Numbered from the stretch's first letter, positions 6,218 through 57,738 are shown. The stretch is DNA of 64,000 bases from Candidatus Saccharimonadota bacterium (GCA_016700315.1 CP065013.1:321449-385448), one strand, 5' to 3'. Translations and numbers: made by a program. Notes: generated by a model from the sequence alone, not told the origin.

Positions 6218-6802
6218 ATGCAGGAAAATCAGCCCAACAATAATCAGTACGACTTCATCCTCAATTCGGAAAATAAAAAGAAAAAAACTTTTGGCGGCGA
6301 TTCGACCAAAAAAAGAATAATTTTGAGTGTATTGATCGGCGGAGTTTTTTTGGTGCTGGCGATGATAGCGCTGACAATTTTGCGAAACGCTGGTAAAGAA
6401 AAGTTTAACCACGACGCTAAAATTGTACAGCTACAGAATAAGATTATTCAGGCAAGCGAAACAGCTTCACGTACTAGTGACTCGTTAGACACTCGTACCT
6501 TAGCGGCAACTCTTTCAGCTTCTGTGATCAACGATAATGCAGCGTTAATAAGTTACTTAAAAAAGAACGCCCCCAATGATTTCCTAAAAAATGTTCCTAC
6601 TACCGACAAAGATATTGATTCCAAACTCAAAAAAGCCATTAGCGACAACAATTTCGACAATGGATATCTGGAGCTAGTAAATAGCTTCGTAACGGACTAT
6701 ATGAAAGAGCTTAGGTTGTCCAGGGGTGATTCGCCCAGCACTACCAAACTCAAGCTAATTAACAACTCTTTAAACCACATCGAGGTCATAGAGGGACGAT
6801 AA
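6218..6802 (+). CDS. hypothetical membrane-anchored protein (194 aa)
   Basis: One N-terminal TM segment (IILSVLIGGVFLVLAMIALTIL) followed by a soluble domain. Confidence 0.5.
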   Translation: MQENQPNNNQYDFILNSENKKKKTFGGDSTKKRIILSVLIGGVFLVLAMIALTILRNAGKEKFNHDAKIVQLQNKIIQASETASRTSDSLDTRTLAATLSASVINDNAALISYLKKNAPNDFLKNVPTTDKDIDSKLKKAISDNNFDNGYLELVNSFVTDYMKELRLSRGDSPSTTKLKLINNSLNHIEVIEGR

Positions 6803-6880
6803 TTGGTGATTACACTTTAGCCAAATACGAGAAGCGGCGAAAGATGGGGATAAAATTCTAAGCCAGTTCCCAGTCGCTGG

Positions 6881-7146
6881 CCCTTAGCCCCTAGACCCTG
6901 GTCCGTAGGAGGTACGCGGTACGAAGTACGGGGTACTAAGTAGTAAACATGAAATTCTAAATTCTAAATAGTATCAAGTATTACGTATCTTGTATCAAGT
7001 ATGAACTCGCACCTAGAGCCTAACCACTCTAACCTCTAACCTCTAACCTAATCCTAGCTCTTGTCTCTTGTATTTTAACCATAAACTATCAACTATCAAC
7101 TCGTCCCTAGTCCCTAACCGCTCTAACCTCTAACCTAATCCGGTAC
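6881..7146. repeat. compound heptanucleotide tandem-repeat island (about 38 consecutive 7-nt units in one phase)
   Basis: Parsed in 7-nt steps from 6881: cccttag cccctag accctgg tccgtag gaggtac gcggtac gaagtac ggggtac taagtag ... taaattc taaattc ... tatcaag ... tctaacc x3 ... gtctctt ... aactatc x2 ... ccctagt ccctaac ... acctcta x2. No ORF. Lies between convergent genes. Confidence 0.8.
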
Positions 7147-7148
7147 AG

Positions 7149-7487
7149 CTACTTAGCGATAACCAACTGGTAACTATGCAAAATCAAATCTTTGACTTCA
7201 TCCCAGCTGAGCTGCCCCGACAAGACAATCGTATTCCAGTGTTTTTTGTTGAGGTGGTAGCCCGGCATGACAGATTCATATTTTTCACGCAGAACTTCGG
7301 CTAACTTGGGGTCGCACTTCAGGCTAATAGAAATCGGCGATTTACCTTCAGGGATTAATGCAAACATTTTTTCTTCACTACTACCGCGAGCAGGCACCTT
7401 GTAAACTGCCACCTCTTCGCCAAAGGGGTAGTCACGCCGAGCGCCAGCAAAGCTCAACAGATATTCATCGACAGTTTTGTAATCCAT
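7149..7487 (-). CDS. MmcQ/YjbR family DNA-binding protein
   Basis: 112 aa with the family-typical pattern YPFGEEVAVYKV...KMFALI...ISLKCDP...PGYHLNKKHWNTIVL. Confidence 0.7.
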   Translation of the reverse strand: MDYKTVDEYLLSFAGARRDYPFGEEVAVYKVPARGSSEEKMFALIPEGKSPISISLKCDPKLAEVLREKYESVMPGYHLNKKHWNTIVLSGQLSWDEVKDLILHSYQLVIAK

Positions 7488-8294: not shown

Positions 8295-8397
8295 GATAAA
8301 TAGCCTACTCTTTAGCTATAATTTTGTCAATCATTTGTTGCCATAGAGCATTGTTTAGTAAATATTATTCTGATTTAATGCTACTCGCAAAACTTAA

Positions 8398-8577
8398 ATG
8401 AAAGTAACGTTGATGGAAAAGGACCCGATCCAGGAATACGAAAGGATGCTAGAAGAAAGATACGACGATTTAACAAATGGCCGGGATATGTACGAAAACA
8501 CAAGCCGACTACGATTACAGTTCGATAGTGGCATTTTGCCAAAAGTAGCTTTAGACAAAAACATGACATCTGAATAG
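8398..8577 (+). CDS. possible small charged protein (59 aa), not in the ORF track
   Basis: Own translation: MKVTLMEKDPIQEYERMLEERYDDLTNGRDMYENTSRLRLQFDSGILPKVALDKNMTSE*. It lies in an otherwise empty 380-bp gap. No clear SD. Confidence 0.25.
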   Translation: MKVTLMEKDPIQEYERMLEERYDDLTNGRDMYENTSRLRLQFDSGILPKVALDKNMTSE

Positions 8578-8680
8578 TTTCATAATACAAAAGTGTCAAA
8601 AAATTGTTGCCAAAAAAGTTGAATGTTGGTTTACCCTGCTGTTACGATAGAACCTATTCCACTCTAAATAAATAGGAACC

Positions 8681-13999: not shown

Positions 14000-15670
14000 T
14001 CACATTTTTTCGGGAGCGTGAATACCTAAAAGGTCTAGCCCAGCTTTTAGGGTGTCAGCATATCTGCCGACTAGCCAAAGCCTGAGTTCCTCTCGATCAT
14101 CTGAGCCAATAACTCGGTTTTGCTCGTAAAAACGGTTAAATTCTTGCGCTAATTCGTAAAGGTAAGTACAGATATAATGAGGCATAAGCTCGCGAGTTGA
14201 CAGCTCAACTACCTCAGAAAATTCGCCGATTTTTCTGACTAATAGTCTTTCGCCCGGCTGAAGCTTAGAGTTGATAGTTGATAGTTGATAGTTGATAGTT
14301 GATTTGCTTAGGATGCTGCGCGCCCGAGCGTGAGCATATTGGAGATAAGGGCCAGAGTTACCCTCTGTCGCCACCGACTCTAGCGGGTCATAAACAATAT
14401 CGCCGCCGATTCGGCTCTTTGAAAAAGCATACTTAACGGCCGCCAAGACTGTCGACTCATCTGCTTCGGGGCTCGCTTGTCGAGCCGACTGAAGTATGTC
14501 GATGGCACCGACAATATTGCCTTTTCTTGAACTCATTTTTACACCACCCTGTAGCTTCACAACACCGTGAGTCAGATGCAGGGTTCTGCTGGCCGGTTCT
14601 GGGGCAAACTGCTCTATGCTTTTTATGACAACCTGCATGTACTGTGCTTGTTCATTAGCAGTTATGATGATCGATTTATCGAAGTGGTAATCCTGCCACT
14701 TTGTCAGGCTTAGACCAACGTCTTTGGCCTCATAGGTTGGCAAACCTTCTGAGTTGATGAAAACTCGGTTGTGAAGGCCAAACTTTTCTCCTTCAAATAT
14801 CACCGCACCGCCACTTTGCGCATAAACACCCTTTGCCAGCTGCTCTTTGACCGTAGTTAGCCCGAGCGGAGTTACTTCGCTTTCAGGTATAAATCTATCA
14901 AATGCTGAAACTTCTAGCTGCTTGTAAAGTTCCTTGAAATACTCGTAGCTCCATTCGCGACAAAGCCAATAGACCTTAGCGAAATCGGATTCATGATCAC
15001 CCGTTTCGTGAACTGAGTAGATAGCCTTATTGGCTTCGACGATTGCTACTCGAGCCGATTCATCGTCCTCATAAGCATTGTTGCCTTCAACATAGCGCTC
15101 ACCTAGCCATTTTGGTCTTTCAGACCCATCAACTTCGTCAAGTTTGGCTGGTTGGCCGTCAAGCCACCGCATTATCGCCCACATACTCTTGGCTGCGTGC
15201 AGTCCTACATCACCACCGAAGTTAAGCCGAACTACTTCGGCTCCAGCGTACTCAACCATTCTGGCAATAACGTCGCCAACCAAAGTTGTGTACAGATGCC
15301 CGGCATGCAGCGGTTTAAACGGGTTGGGGTCAGAGTACTCAACCAGAACTTTTTGGCCACTATAGGTTTTTACTGCCGAAGCTTTTGTAAGTTCGATAAG
15401 TGCCGCGTCGGTAAGTTTGATATTGATAAATCCTGGCCCCGCTACTTCGGCGCTTAGAATGTCACCGCCAACAAGCTGCTCGCAAATTGACTCAGCGATG
15501 GCTCTAGGGCCGCCTGCAGGCGGGTTTTCTAATTTGCCAGCTAGCTGCAAAGCAACGTTTGTTGAGAAATCACCAAACTTAGCCTCTGGCCTCGTCAAAA
15601 CCACCTCCAAGTCGAAGCCGAACTGGGCCGACACCAACTCCCCAACTTTACTTCTCAAATTCTCAAACAT
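14000..15670 (-). CDS. argS: arginine--tRNA ligase
   Basis: PNPFKPLHAGHL (HIGH), MSSRKG (KMSK-like), and the C-terminal DALR anticodon-binding region. Contains a heptamer-array-encoded insert STINYQLSTINSK. Confidence 0.95.
   Translation of the reverse strand: MFENLRSKVGELVSAQFGFDLEVVLTRPEAKFGDFSTNVALQLAGKLENPPAGGPRAIAESICEQLVGGDILSAEVAGPGFINIKLTDAALIELTKASAVKTYSGQKVLVEYSDPNPFKPLHAGHLYTTLVGDVIARMVEYAGAEVVRLNFGGDVGLHAAKSMWAIMRWLDGQPAKLDEVDGSERPKWLGERYVEGNNAYEDDESARVAIVEANKAIYSVHETGDHESDFAKVYWLCREWSYEYFKELYKQLEVSAFDRFIPESEVTPLGLTTVKEQLAKGVYAQSGGAVIFEGEKFGLHNRVFINSEGLPTYEAKDVGLSLTKWQDYHFDKSIIITANEQAQYMQVVIKSIEQFAPEPASRTLHLTHGVVKLQGGVKMSSRKGNIVGAIDILQSARQASPEADESTVLAAVKYAFSKSRIGGDIVYDPLESVATEGNSGPYLQYAHARARSILSKSTINYQLSTINSKLQPGERLLVRKIGEFSEVVELSTRELMPHYICTYLYELAQEFNRFYEQNRVIGSDDREELRLWLVGRYADTLKAGLDLLGIHAPEKM
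14270..14304. repeat. heptanucleotide tandem array (GTTGATA)x4 plus GTTGATT inside the argS coding sequence
   Basis: gttgatagttgatagttgatagttgatagttgatt was read directly. The reverse-complement unit TATCAAC also occurs in the 6881-7146 island (aactatcaactatcaac). Confidence 0.85.
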
Positions 15671-26695: not shown

Positions 26696-26723
26696 ATTGT
26701 AAATTGAAAATTGAAAATTGAAA
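26696..26723. repeat. heptanucleotide tandem array ATTGTAA plus (ATTGAAA)x3 in a divergent intergenic region
   Basis: attgtaaattgaaaattgaaaattgaaa was read directly. Confidence 0.8.
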
Positions 26724-26753
26724 AATTAGCTTATTAATTACTCGGGGGTGGGG

Positions 26754-34703: not shown

Positions 34704-35810
34704 ATGATCGTTTTAGGGATTGAAACCAGTTGCGATGAAACTTCGGTCGGGATTGTCGAGCTTAACGATACAAGCAAAGGGGCGACACTCTATGCCAACG
34801 CCGTGCTTTCAAGCATGGACTTACACACAAAATACGGTGGAGTTGTACCCGAAATAGCTGCCCGTGAACATATCAAAGCTATGCCTATCGTTATCGAAAA
34901 AGCTTTTGAGCAAGCTGGCATGAGTTGGGAAGATATAGATGCTATAGCCGTAACTAACGGCGCCGGGCTTGGCGGATCGTTGCTTGTCGGTGTAATGACT
35001 GCACGAACCCTAGCCATTACCCAGAACAAACCACTATATGCCTGCAACCACGTCGAAGGTCATGTGTACGCTAACTTTTTAACAAGCCAACAGTCAACAG
35101 AAGACAGTCGACAGAAAACTCAACTTAGCAACTACCAGCTACCATCTACCACACCCCAGTTCCCTATCCTTGCACTGATTGTCAGCGGAAATCATACTCA
35201 ACTAGTCCTCTTTAAAGATCACTTTGATTATAGGTTACTCGGCCAAACTCACGATGATGCTATAGGTGAGGCTTTTGATAAATGCGCCAAAATAACTGGT
35301 CTCCCCTACCCTGGTGGCCCGTCGATTGCCGCCAAAGCCAAAGAGGGCGATACTCAAGCCTTCGATCTGCCAAAAGCGAAAATGCCAGGTAAGTACGACT
35401 TCAGCTTCTCTGGCGTAAAAACCGCTACTCTAAGACAGGCTCAGGCCATGTGTGGTGAGGATTTCACCTTTCCGTCTAAGAACCTGCCAGAACGCCTCTC
35501 AGAGCCTCAGAAGGCCAACATTGCTGCCGTGTTCCAACGTGTCGCGATCGAAACCGTGGTCGACAAGACAGCTTTGGCTTACGAAGAGTTCGGTCCCGCT
35601 TCTGTGATCATCGCAGGTGGTGTCGCCGCCAGCACGGAGCTACGCCGCCAACTATCTGAACGTCTGCCGATGGACATAAACTATGCCGATATCAAGCTAT
35701 GCACGGACAATGGAACTATGATTGCCTGCCTTGGGGCATACAAAGCTCTATTAGGCCAACCCAAAGCCGAGCCATACTCTCTAGAAATCAATCCCAACCT
35801 ATCTATGTAA
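34704..35810 (+). CDS. tsaD: tRNA N6-adenosine threonylcarbamoyltransferase TsaD
   Basis: MIVLGIETSCDETSVGIV..., HVEGHV, and GGVAAS. The start is set at ATG 34704 because the track's 50-aa N-terminal extension reads through the palindromic repeat. The stop TAA (35808-35810) overlaps the MITE terminus. Confidence 0.9.
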   Translation: MIVLGIETSCDETSVGIVELNDTSKGATLYANAVLSSMDLHTKYGGVVPEIAAREHIKAMPIVIEKAFEQAGMSWEDIDAIAVTNGAGLGGSLLVGVMTARTLAITQNKPLYACNHVEGHVYANFLTSQQSTEDSRQKTQLSNYQLPSTTPQFPILALIVSGNHTQLVLFKDHFDYRLLGQTHDDAIGEAFDKCAKITGLPYPGGPSIAAKAKEGDTQAFDLPKAKMPGKYDFSFSGVKTATLRQAQAMCGEDFTFPSKNLPERLSEPQKANIAAVFQRVAIETVVDKTALAYEEFGPASVIIAGGVAASTELRRQLSERLPMDINYADIKLCTDNGTMIACLGAYKALLGQPKAEPYSLEINPNLSM

Positions 35811-36102: not shown

Positions 36103-36568
36103 CGTAGTAAATATAGCAACGTTATGGTCTCTGTATTTGATAGTATTGACGAACTATGATATGCTTATGCTTGTAAAACAAAAATGGTTGTACTGACTGC
36201 AAGCCAATGCGGTTCGCACTTTTGAGACAAAATACAACTTAGACAGGAGCTAACAGATGACTTTCACGTGAAAGTTTATGTTGGTTTTTGTCTTTTTTTG
36301 GTATTTTTACCGTTTTATGGTCACCTTTCATTACCGTAGCCTTCATGTGGTCGTGTGAATACGCTCCCCTCGACCTTCCTGTTCAATGTTCTATGTCATG
36401 GCTGACAAATATTGCCTGCCGGCCTCTCTTGCAACTAAAGTATGCTGGTTTTATATTCAACTCTAAGAAGCTGGGGTTCTCCTCATGACAGGCGTCTCAT
36501 GACTCTTGTCTCGCTTGCTTCTTGCTTATGCTTTATACTTACCACTTTCTACTTTATACTTATTTCAT

Positions 36569-40973: not shown

Positions 40974-41218
40974 GCGGAGGAGTACCCAAGTGGCTGCTGC
41001 GTGAAACGTAAATTTGTAGACGGTTTGCCGTCCCCTTCAGTTTACGGACACACAGGAGCTACGTGAATAACGTAAGCTTTCAATGCGGAGGAGTACCCAA
41101 GTGGCTGCTGCGTGAAACGTAAATTTGTAGACGGTTTGCCGTCCCCTTCAGTTTACGGACACACAGGAGCTACGTGAATAACGTAAGCTTTCAATGCGGA
41201 GGAGTACCCAAGTGGCTG
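40974..41218 (+). repeat. 111-bp tandem repeat (2.2 copies) whose unit begins with the 5' part of tRNA-Ser(GCT)
   Basis: Units start at 40974, 41085 and 41196, each with gcggaggagtacccaagtggctg. Units 1 and 2 continue with an 88-nt non-tRNA segment, and unit 3 continues into the complete tRNA. Confidence 0.9.
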
Positions 41219-41290
41219 AAGGGGACGGTTTGCTAAATCGTTAGGGGGGCGCAAGTTCCCGCGAGAGTTCGAATCTCTCCTCCTCCGCCA
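41198..41290 (+). tRNA. tRNA-Ser (anticodon GCT), class II, CCA encoded
   Basis: Hand-folded. Acceptor GGAGGAG/CTCCTCC, anticodon stem acggt/atcgt with loop ttGCTaa, long variable arm, T-arm gagag-ttcgaat-ctctc, and G73-CCA. Confidence 0.85.
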
Positions 41291-56401: not shown

Positions 56402-57211
56402 ATGAATCCTAATAATTTTCGAACTGGTTCAGGAGCTAGCAACCAAGCCAATGTGATTGGCCCACAACAGTCAACAGCAAAAAATAACTCGAATAGCACC
56501 CAGAACACACTTCAAATTGCCGAAATTCGCGATGGAATTGTGATTATGAACGATGGCACTTACCGAGCGGTCTTAATGTGTAAGAGCATTAACTTCGATC
56601 TAATGAGTACCCAGGAACGCGAAGGCGTAGAGTACGCCTATCAAGGCTTTCTGAACTCGCTTTACTACCCGATTCAGATTTTCATCCGTAGCCAAAAAGT
56701 TGACTTAAGACCGTATCTAGAGAAGATGCAAAAAATACGCAGCGAGCATGACAACATGCTTTTGGCGCTCATGATGGAGGACTACATTTCCTACATGGCA
56801 TCTCTGGCCGACCAAGTTAATATCATGGATAAAAAGTTCTACGTGGTAGTACCCTTTATACCAACCGTTGACGCTCAGGCCATTGTCCAAGGTAGCAAGA
56901 ACTTTTTGAGTGGGCTATCTAGTACTTTCAACAAAAAAGAAAGCCATGTCACCATCAACGAAGCAGAGTTGCAAAAAGCCAAGGATGAGCTGAAAAACCG
57001 CGTCCAATCCGTCATGCAAGGTCTGATGCAATGTTCTGTGCAGAGTCTCCCGCTCGATACTCAAGAGCTAATAGAGCTTTTCTACGACTTTTATAACCCA
57101 GACACCGCTACAAGACAGCAGATAAAAAACTTTGATGATCTGAGCGTGCCTGTGATCACTAAAGGCCAGGGTCAAGCACCGCAACCGCAGTTGAATAGGA
57201 CTTTGCAGTAA
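56402..57211 (+). CDS. protein resembling the N-terminal domain of Gram-positive VirB4-type ATPases (269 aa)
   Basis: LQIAEIRDGIVIMNDGTYRAVLMCKSINFDLMSTQEREGVEYAYQGFLNSLYYPIQIFIRSQKVDL matches the opening domain pattern of Tn916 Orf16 / PrgJ-type VirB4 as I recall it. Its stop overlaps the start of the four-helix-bundle gene (TAATG). Confidence 0.45.
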   Translation: MNPNNFRTGSGASNQANVIGPQQSTAKNNSNSTQNTLQIAEIRDGIVIMNDGTYRAVLMCKSINFDLMSTQEREGVEYAYQGFLNSLYYPIQIFIRSQKVDLRPYLEKMQKIRSEHDNMLLALMMEDYISYMASLADQVNIMDKKFYVVVPFIPTVDAQAIVQGSKNFLSGLSSTFNKKESHVTINEAELQKAKDELKNRVQSVMQGLMQCSVQSLPLDTQELIELFYDFYNPDTATRQQIKNFDDLSVPVITKGQGQAPQPQLNRTLQ

Positions 57212-57669
57212 TGAACGAGGAACGAGGAACGAGGAACGAGGAGAATAACATAATTTCTTCCGTTTCGATTATCGGGAACGAGGAACGAGGAACGAGGAAC
57301 GACAGCAAGATTAAAACTTTCTTTGATTTGGATGCCTGGCAGGAGTCTCATAATCTGTGCCTGCTTTCCTACAAATTAACAAAAAGTTTTCCAAATGAGG
57401 AATTGTACGGCCTAACAAGCCAACTTAGACGAGCAGCGGTGTCCGTTACATCAAATATTGCTGAAGGATTTTCAAGAGAAAGCTACTCTTATAAATGTCA
57501 TTTTTATACTATGGCTCACACGTCTATATCTGAACTAATTTCGCAAGCATACTTAGCAAAAGATCTGACGTATATTAAGCCAGATGAGTTTGATTCATAT
57601 TATGAGCTAGCCCAAAAAGCTTATAAAATTCTTGGCGGCCTGATAAAAGCAACTAAGGAGCGAAAATGA
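57211..57669 (+). CDS. four-helix-bundle protein (23S rRNA intervening-sequence protein / Avd family)
   Basis: Hallmark LDAWQESHNLCLLSYKLTKSFPNEELYGLTSQLRRAAVSVTSNIAEGFSR...ELISQAYLAKDLTYI. The first ~30 codons are encoded by the heptamer arrays (NEERGTRNEE...NEERGTRND). Confidence 0.8.
   Translation: MNEERGTRNEENNIISSVSIIGNEERGTRNDSKIKTFFDLDAWQESHNLCLLSYKLTKSFPNEELYGLTSQLRRAAVSVTSNIAEGFSRESYSYKCHFYTMAHTSISELISQAYLAKDLTYIKPDEFDSYYELAQKAYKILGGLIKATKERK
57213..57303 (+). repeat. two in-phase heptamer arrays, (GAACGAG)x4 and (GAACGAG)x3 plus GAACGAC, at the left end of the four-helix-bundle cassette
   Basis: The arrays are at 57213-57240 and 57276-57303. Their offset is 63 nt, which is 9 x 7. 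Confidence 0.85.
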
Positions 57670-57710
57670 GCCTACGCAAACAAGAAATTATTTTTCCTAG
57701 CATTTTATCG

Positions 57711-57738
57711 TCGTTCATCGTTCATCGTTCATCGTTCT
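57711..57738 (-). repeat. heptamer array (TCGTTCA)x3 plus TCGTTCT at the right end of the cassette
   Basis: tcgttcatcgttcatcgttcatcgttct. The reverse complement is (TGAACGA)n, so the GAACGA core is inverted relative to the left arrays. Confidence 0.85.

Follow-up and report, generated by a model that had tools for sequence, protein, structure and literature searches.

A compound array of heptanucleotide repeats, here called the island, accounts for the larger part of the 346 nt that separate two convergent genes in a 64,000-nt stretch of a Candidatus Saccharimonadota genome (GCA_016700315.1, CP065013.1:321449-385448; this whole stretch is the window, and positions are counted from its first letter). 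The island is probably a neutral, rapidly evolving, degenerate simple-sequence repeat that grew in place by duplication in 7-nt steps and by mutation, in the style of the short tandemly repeated heptanucleotide (STRR) sequences, and it most likely has no sequence-specific function of its own.

The periodicity of the island is specific to 7 nt. Over positions 6881-7146, self-identity at lag 7 is 0.614, compared with 0.20-0.31 at other lags, and shuffled sequences taken as reference place this value at z=13.3; lags 14, 21 and 28 retain identities of 0.47, 0.44 and 0.43. This is the most strongly 7-periodic site of the whole 64 kb. Tandem Repeats Finder (TRF) reports six period-7 tracts within the island, and of the 33 rows it lists for the window, 17 show a period of 7 or 14. 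All six reading frames are closed, with 6-12 stops each and a longest open run of 29 codons. The region therefore is, as a sequence-only reading had described it, a heptamer island without an open reading frame (ORF).

That reading had also counted about 38 units in a single 7-nt phase, and this part stands only partially. Of 38 sliding 21-nt segments, 36 are most self-similar at lag 7, and a register listing recovers all of the unit families that had been named. Along the array the families drift from CCCTAG through GGTACNN, AAATTCT, GTATNNN, TCTAACC, GTCTCTT, AACTATC and CCCTAGT to TCTAACC. Read by sevens, however, the register is traceable from about 6860, which raises the count to approximately 41. 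At four junctions (7021/7028, 7042/7049, 7070/7077 and 7133/7140) the similarity of adjacent units is no higher than chance, so the phase is undefined there. A repeat search further revealed a diverged 61-nt duplication inside the island (Table 1), and because its 87-nt offset is no multiple of 7, the two TCTAACC blocks lie in different phases.

The similarity between units provides further evidence on how the array arose. In-phase identity falls with unit distance from 0.60 through 0.47, 0.45, 0.43 and 0.39 to 0.31, and reaches a baseline of 0.26 by about 8 units. This smooth decay is consistent with local duplication and mutation. Within blocks, variation is found mostly in two or three adjacent positions (GNNGTAC, TATNNNG), although the counts are too low for a test. 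On the + strand, the right half (7007-7146) is C-rich and G-poor (C 36%, G 8%), a composition that would fit a Rho-utilization site, and its RNA would be unstructured.

Strain alleles and the lineage-specific spacer

The locus was retrieved from independent ENA, JGI and Logan assemblies by exact protein sequence look-up. Nine usable assemblies of the same species yielded five alleles, of 266, 346, 346, 353 and 360 nt, and every length difference among them is repeat-mediated. The AAATTCT tract is 14 nt longer in five other assemblies (three copies plus an AAATACT unit, compared with two copies in the window). The TCTAACC tract gains 7 nt in assemblies L091, L092 and L096, which carry four copies instead of three, and the AACTATC tract has lost 7 nt, one copy, in L091, L095, L096 and L097. 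An 80-nt deletion in L092 has removed exactly the stretch from one copy of the internal duplication to the other. These events are combined differently among the alleles and are therefore recurrent or recombined. Together with the decay of in-phase identity, the strain data support growth in place. Duplication in 7-nt steps fits this polymorphism, in agreement with the earlier proposal of a product of slippage in a 7-nt register.

Substitutions in the island are about as dense as in its surroundings, at 2-4% compared with 1.7-8% in the flanks, where the changes fall mostly at third codon positions of dnaG. This similarity indicates neither constraint nor hypermutation, and hypermutation of the island was ruled out on this basis. 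Five substitutions that separate the window allele from all eight other assemblies are clustered within 15 nt, at 6933-6947; the cluster looks like a conversion-like patch inside the array. Both flanking ORFs are intact in all alleles except L095, in which the YjbR gene is broken outside the array, and no allele carries a gene at the position of the island. An apparent 501-nt allele, in L081 and L093, was discarded as a scaffolding artifact, with an N-gap between duplicated flanks. Several Logan contigs (among L082-L090 and L110-L112) stop about 35-60 nt past the YjbR stop codon or inside the argS array.

Comparison with a sister species bears on the origin of the entire spacer. A contig from that species keeps the order rpoD-dnaG-gene-YjbR-TrmB, with the two stop codons 5 nt apart, and both the 194-aa and the YjbR proteins align with their counterparts there through to their C-termini. 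Because the sister species has the same gene order and a 5-nt spacer, the whole spacer is a lineage-specific gain and not a ruined ancestral gene. The sequence-only reading had asked for relatives to be compared for a resident gene; none was found, and the short sister spacer speaks against a degraded coding sequence. The non-periodic left part of the spacer (6803-6859) has one variable site among the nine alleles and is absent from the sister species, and no further copy of it is present in the window or in any fetched locus. Likewise, no second copy of the spacer was detected in the window or in approximately 200 fetched loci, which gave only short array-to-array matches.

The flanking genes also inform on the host. 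In one-genome-per-species collections, nearly all of the 80 top YjbR relatives come from metagenome-assembled genomes of Candidatus Saccharibacteria/Saccharimonadales, at 62-73% identity; the host is therefore a Saccharimonadales bacterium (Patescibacteria, candidate phyla radiation (CPR)) and not a cyanobacterium. The 194-aa protein is represented by three protein clusters only in 5.8 billion sequences; its sole distant relative, at 60% identity, is on the sister-species contig, and a metagenome scan with the 194-aa protein returned no matches. A 330-aa APH-family (phosphotransferase) gene lies between the TrmB-like gene and a 144-aa gene in other strains (L091, 5078-6276); it is missing from the window (8295-8680) and from L081/L093. 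A type IV secretion system (T4SS)-like cluster is also present in the window.

Other types of element were searched for in the island. It matches no Rfam family, and its predicted RNA fold is no better than that of shuffled sequences on either strand (+ strand, z=-0.15; - strand, z=+2.42); a structured non-coding RNA was rejected on these grounds. There are 0 inverted-repeat pairs in 6780-7180, which rejects an inverted-repeat element, and the additional lack of a second copy of the spacer in the window and in about 200 loci rejects a dispersed mobile repeat such as a miniature inverted-repeat transposable element (MITE) or repetitive extragenic palindrome (REP). No intrinsic terminator for either gene was found in the spacer, and promoter-like sites occur there at chance level only. 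A phase-variable contingency locus was set aside as well, since the array lies downstream of both stop codons and the ORFs remain intact across alleles (L095 excepted). The island has instead the features of bacterial long simple sequence repeats (LSSRs), a class with units of 5-11 nt: tandem units far beyond chance, whole-unit polymorphism and a non-coding location.

Heptamer arrays elsewhere and the genes beside them

The island is one of several heptamer arrays in the window (Table 1). Eight perfect arrays of at least 2.5 copies were counted, compared with 0.08 expected from a second-order Markov model (at most 1 in 200 simulations). At a threshold of at least 3 copies, six arrays have period 7 and none has a period of 4-6 or 8-12, and at least eight heptamer unit families occur within the 64 kb. 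Other Saccharibacteria loci are on average array-poor, with 0.011 arrays per kb compared with 0.08-0.125 here. The arrays that the sequence-only reading had listed at 57213-57303, 57711-57738, 14270-14304 (in argS) and 26696-26723 are real, and the period-7 enrichment that it proposed as a check is borne out within the window.

Table 1. Coordinates of the island, its flanks and other heptamer-bearing features of the window.
Feature	Position	Strand	Remarks
Compound heptanucleotide array (island), ~41 units	6860..7146	.	Lag-7 identity, register listing, in-phase identity decay
61-nt segmental duplication, copy 1	6994..7054	.	Repeat family D1, 72% identity, spacing 87 nt
61-nt segmental duplication, copy 2	7081..7141	.	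Later re-homogenized into AACTATC and CCCTAGT tracts
AAATTCT tract, polymorphic	6951..6971	.	2 copies here
TCTAACC tract, polymorphic	7027..7049	.	3 copies here
AACTATC tract, polymorphic	7084..7101	.	2 full copies here (2.6 by run length)
Non-periodic left part of lineage-specific spacer	6803..6859	.	No lag-7 signal
Left flanking gene, 194-aa protein, species-restricted	6218..6802	+	No Pfam match; stop codon 57 nt before array
Right flanking gene, YjbR family (PF04237)	7149..7487	-	E=5.6e-28; stop codon abuts array; convergent
ATCAACT x5 array inside argS	14269..14303	-	Variable linker of anticodon-binding domain
ATTGAAA x4 array	26696..26724	.	Spacer between divergent genes
Heptamer arrays inside tsaD (34704-35810)	35090..35160	+	Coincide with loop ~20 aa longer than in solved TsaD structures
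Degenerate heptamer array	36498..36567	.	Just 5' of likely valS start codon
Four-helix-bundle (4HB) gene, PF05635, S23p/23S-IVS protein family	57211..57669	+	Between TraC-like and VirB4-like genes
Two upstream (GGAACGA)4 arrays	57213-57242 and 57275-57302	+	Overlap start codon and first 30 codons of 4HB ORF
Downstream (TCGTTCA)4 array	57711..57737	+	Reverse complement of upstream arrays at 6/7 positions

Some of these arrays lie within genes. The argS array was rejected as an insertion, as there is no net insertion relative to E. coli ArgRS, and its length is constant at 35 nt (five units) in all strains. In the divergent strain L109, all units are changed in concert, from ATCAACT to ATCAGCC/ATCAGCT. 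The argS array is thus a case of concerted evolution with length held constant. The extra loop of tsaD measures about 63 nt, or nine units, and is in frame. In another Saccharibacterium, nine drifting heptamers lie inside YjbR (L008, 4090-4160), and the match to this gene exceeds that of other relatives by 63 nt. Intergenic drifting heptamer islands are found in L036 (1042-1149) and L061 (3340-3446).

Unit cores are shared by unlinked loci. The AACTATC unit of the island is the reverse complement of the argS array unit, and the GGTAC core recurs in a T4SS spacer of L115 and L119. The similarity between the island and this spacer is marginal, the same level being reached by 3.7% of shuffles.

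The T4SS spacer of L115 and L119 is an allele of the site that in the window holds the four-helix-bundle (4HB) gene of the S23p/23S intervening sequence (IVS) family. This gene is a presence/absence polymorphism in the species: L115 and L119 lack it, and at this site they carry (ACCCTGT)3 and a GTACG-type run within a spacer of 116 nt. The closest solved relative of the encoded protein is XCC0516 of Xanthomonas (2GSC, E=3.5e-20). At the gene, the predicted RNA fold has z=-2.74, with a predicted stem between the arrays that would enclose the ORF.

A survey covered 80 metagenome loci from the CPR with homologues of the 57211-57669 protein. Within 250 nt of a 4HB gene, 43 perfect heptamer arrays were present, whereas the other 134 kb contained 10; periods 5, 6 and 8 showed no enrichment near the 4HB genes of the same loci. 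The motif GAAY recurs upstream of the genes with 213 of about 300 adjacent pairs spaced exactly 7 nt, and RTTC recurs downstream with 130 pairs at 7 nt, while a control motif gave no pairs at this spacing. The upstream and downstream flanks of one locus complement each other better than flanks taken from different loci (p=1.7e-13), which indicates that the arms co-vary. At L181 (940-1006), (GAACNNN)n and (NNNGTTC)n face each other 4 nt apart, as an ORF-less hairpin of cassette arms; it can be likened to the 70 inverted GGGAATC pairs reported for Xanthomonas.

Plasmids of cyanobacteria show the same arrangement. Adjacent arrays are present at 7 of 8 4HB loci, and they are clearly inverted and complementary at four (Calothrix, Nostoc, Picosynechococcus and Anabaena). 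On Anabaena sp. 90 pANA02, 8 of the 9 arrays within the first 50 kb flank the 4HB gene. The ninth, (TTGGTAA)2.7 at L213 10109-10127, is located in a diversity-generating retroelement, between its avd and reverse transcriptase genes, and is one base off the classical STRR2 unit TTGGTCA. The arrays of Pseudanabaena, (AAAAGCT)14 and (AAAAGCC)9, are direct and not inverted. On these plasmids the 4HB genes are often found within cas operons; at loci L209, L210 and L212 they interrupt CRISPR-cas operons (cas6/cas4; cas10/cmr3), each flanked by arrays. Conversely, all 5 arrays in 50 kb of a Calothrix plasmid are without a nearby 4HB gene.

Published cases fit the same pattern. A repeat table for Xanthomonas lists a GGGAATC-type repeat (#15) that overlaps the XCC0516 start codon. 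The 23S IVS of Coxiella has 2-3 strain-variable GACAGAT repeats before the S23p ORF, at the RNase III site (PMC4990558). A literature search returned no report of heptamer repeats in Saccharibacteria and no paper stating a general link between S23p/4HB genes and heptamers, with the Coxiella IVS paper as the one exception. A scan of viral contigs with the 4HB protein gave no matches.

The 4HB-array association is very strong across three phyla and is much more general than the association with 4HB genes that the sequence-only reading had suspected. The association is compatible with a causal link from 4HB genes to arrays and does not demonstrate one, and many arrays have no 4HB gene nearby.

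Separately, a perfect 111-nt tandem repeat (2.2 copies, 100% identity) lies at 40974-41218, with the final, partial copy extending into the 5' end of a tRNA-Ser(GCT) gene (41198-41290). It could represent duplicated tRNA 5' halves or attachment sites.

Probable growth in place and its alternatives

Under the proposed mechanism, strand slippage or unequal exchange would duplicate a heptamer, and perfect tracts would thereafter quickly expand and contract. Point mutations would interrupt a tract and produce variant units that become the seeds of the next tract; the unit family would drift along the array while the 7-nt register is retained, with an occasional larger duplication or deletion between similar blocks. 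In a 3'-3' spacer such length changes would be costless, allowing the array to reach about 40 units. In coding regions, arrays are found only where they preserve the reading frame, as in tsaD, the YjbR gene of L008 and argS with its fixed 35 nt. In many bacteria no other long simple repeats are as over-represented as heptamers; polymerase slippage has been put forward as their origin, and their length varies between close relatives (PMC4679880, PMC4692102).

Several points weigh against this account. It leaves the preference for a 7-nt step unexplained; a published proposal, cited in PMC4679880 and PMC4692102, invokes the footprint of the replicative polymerase. Slippage itself is read from the differences between alleles, and enrichment was measured in this 64-kb window only of the genome. 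The recurrence of the GGTAC and AACTATC cores at unlinked loci is not predicted by purely local slippage. The within-block variation of the island recalls the arrays flanking 4HB genes, in which a core is combined with variable positions, and the C-rich, G-poor right half could reflect selection at the RNA level.

A different explanation, which we consider unlikely, would make the island a by-product, relic or target of the S23p/4HB (IVS-type) cassette system. Heptamer arrays flank 4HB genes nearly always, in CPR metagenome loci and cyanobacterial plasmids and also in the Coxiella IVS and at Xanthomonas XCC0516. Away from the genes, array density in 4HB-bearing contigs (0.075/kb) is close to that of the window (0.079/kb) and about 7 times that of the other Saccharibacteria loci, although this comparison is unmatched for taxonomy. 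The cassette-free T4SS spacer allele bears GGTAC-core heptamers like those of the island, and the AAATTCT block of the island is identical to 4HB-flank units in L133, L172 and L177. However, the island has neither inverted symmetry nor a trace of a 4HB ORF (in the window, phmmer finds 4HB only at 57211-57669), no allele carries a cassette there, and the periodic GAAY/RTTC core is absent save for 2-3 units, the AAATTCT block carrying RTTC. Growth in place is favored over a pile-up of inserted pieces by the uninterrupted 7-nt register and by the steady fall in similarity with distance, and arrays without a nearby 4HB gene are common, as on the Calothrix plasmid. With no inverted arm, no constant core, no gene in the alleles and a continuous register, the suggestion of the sequence-only reading that the island is a decayed or empty landing site for the cassette was not upheld, the 5-nt sister spacer also opposing it, and it becomes a minority reading. 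A broader version would tie the heptamer excess of STRR, Xanthomonas GGGAATC and CPR arrays to S23p/4HB (Avd-like, PF05635) elements and not to a generic polymerase quirk. The genes would be IVS-like cassettes with a closing stem of inverted heptamers, the pentameric protein or the propagation of the element would seed and extend arrays, and solo islands such as 6860-7146 would be off-site products or relics. To this version, too, we attach a low probability.

Selection for function is less probable again. The island could be a spacer with a putative Rho-type or other factor-dependent termination or insulation zone, or a periodic array that binds one protein subunit per heptamer. Its right half would form an unstructured, rut-like 3' untranslated region of the 194-aa gene; neither gene has an intrinsic terminator, and both strands fold no better than shuffles, the - strand worse. 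Binding of one heptamer per protein has been reported for cold-shock proteins (PMC4679880). Yet a 5-nt spacer suffices in the sister species, island sequence and unit number vary freely between strains (including the 80-nt loss), and the substitution density is as high as at neutral sites, with no core conserved throughout. It is very improbable that the island derives from a protein-coding gene or mobile element that has decayed. A small gene could fit into this ORF-less place, and the strain-variable APH gene is inserted nearby, but no gene occupies the sister-species site, a decayed gene is not expected to be 7-periodic over 40 units, and the stops that close all six frames belong to the repeated units; for a mobile element, no other copy of any spacer part was found in the window or the roughly 200 fetched loci, and there are no terminal inverted repeats. 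An assembly artifact is scarcely credible: Logan contigs do end at the right edge of the island or in the argS array, and in one scaffold an N-gap is bordered on each side by a duplicated part of the island, but independent ENA, JGI and Logan assemblies of different samples give a consistent island sequence.

The island extends to the CPR a class of heptamer repeat known from few groups, such as cyanobacteria and Xanthomonas. The locus offers an unusually clean natural record of the growth of such arrays, with five alleles, repeat-mediated indels throughout and an empty site in the sister species. Heptamer arrays also have practical consequences, as they disrupt short-read assemblies and add low-complexity loops to essential genes (tsaD, YjbR). 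The part worth follow-up is the association between S23p cassettes and heptamer arrays: every 4HB (S23p) gene set examined, from the CPR, cyanobacteria, Coxiella and Xanthomonas, has heptamer arrays beside the gene, often as inverted-complement brackets. This joins two old puzzles, the over-representation of heptamers in some bacteria and the role of the 23S-IVS proteins, and makes both testable.

Relation to known heptamer repeats

The STRR units of Calothrix are CCCCAGT, TTGGTCA and CAACAGT. None of these, nor TAACTGA, GGGAATC or GACAGAT, has a tandem copy in the window, and membership of the island in the canonical STRR, TAACTGA, GGGAATC or GACAGAT families was rejected accordingly. The resemblance to STRR noted in the sequence-only reading therefore holds for style and not for family or host. 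Like the STRR of heterocystous cyanobacteria (Calothrix, Nostoc/Anabaena), the arrays described here consist of tandem 7-nt units, belong to several families per genome, are mostly intergenic and have units that recur at unlinked loci. Unlike STRR, they are found in a CPR host, and the island is a long compound of many drifting families, whereas STRR have one family per site. Three heptanucleotides of Calothrix PCC 7601 are mentioned in PMC4692102.

PMC4692102 and the 2007 survey cited there describe over-represented heptameric long simple repeats of bacteria, such as GGGAATC from Xanthomonas and GGGGA(C/T)T from Nostoc PCC 7120. The island shares with them an excess specific to period 7, an intergenic bias, variation in length and sequence between close relatives, and slippage as the proposed cause. 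The Xanthomonas and Nostoc arrays consist of one G-rich family, thought to form quadruplexes and often arranged as inverted pairs, while the island is G-poor, multi-family and without an inverted partner.

TAACTGA direct repeats are known from marine Beggiatoaceae, Microcystis and some Bacteroidetes, and in Microcystis and Gramella they are mixed with other heptamers in one spacer (PMC4679880). As with the island, these heptamers occupy intergenic spacers that are missing in close relatives with the same neighboring genes. They lie mostly just 5' of start codons, where a translational role has been proposed, in contrast to the island, which is 3' of two stop codons.

The 23S IVS of Coxiella burnetii, with (GACAGAT)2-3 (PMC4990558), resembles the island in varying by whole units between strains. 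Its repeats are part of a stem that is processed by RNase III and encloses an ORF, whereas the island has neither an ORF nor a complementary arm. The Coxiella IVS is instead a published precedent for heptamers beside an S23p/4HB gene, as at 57211-57737. Compared with the IVS-type S23p cassette in general, the island lacks the PF05635 gene, the inverted complementary arrays and the constant 7-nt core.

The compound or interrupted microsatellites and minisatellites of eukaryotes have variants born by mutation, local expansion, whole-unit polymorphism and neutral evolution, and the island resembles them in all of these respects. It differs from them in its bacterial setting and in the strict 7-nt step that is common to all arrays of this genome region.

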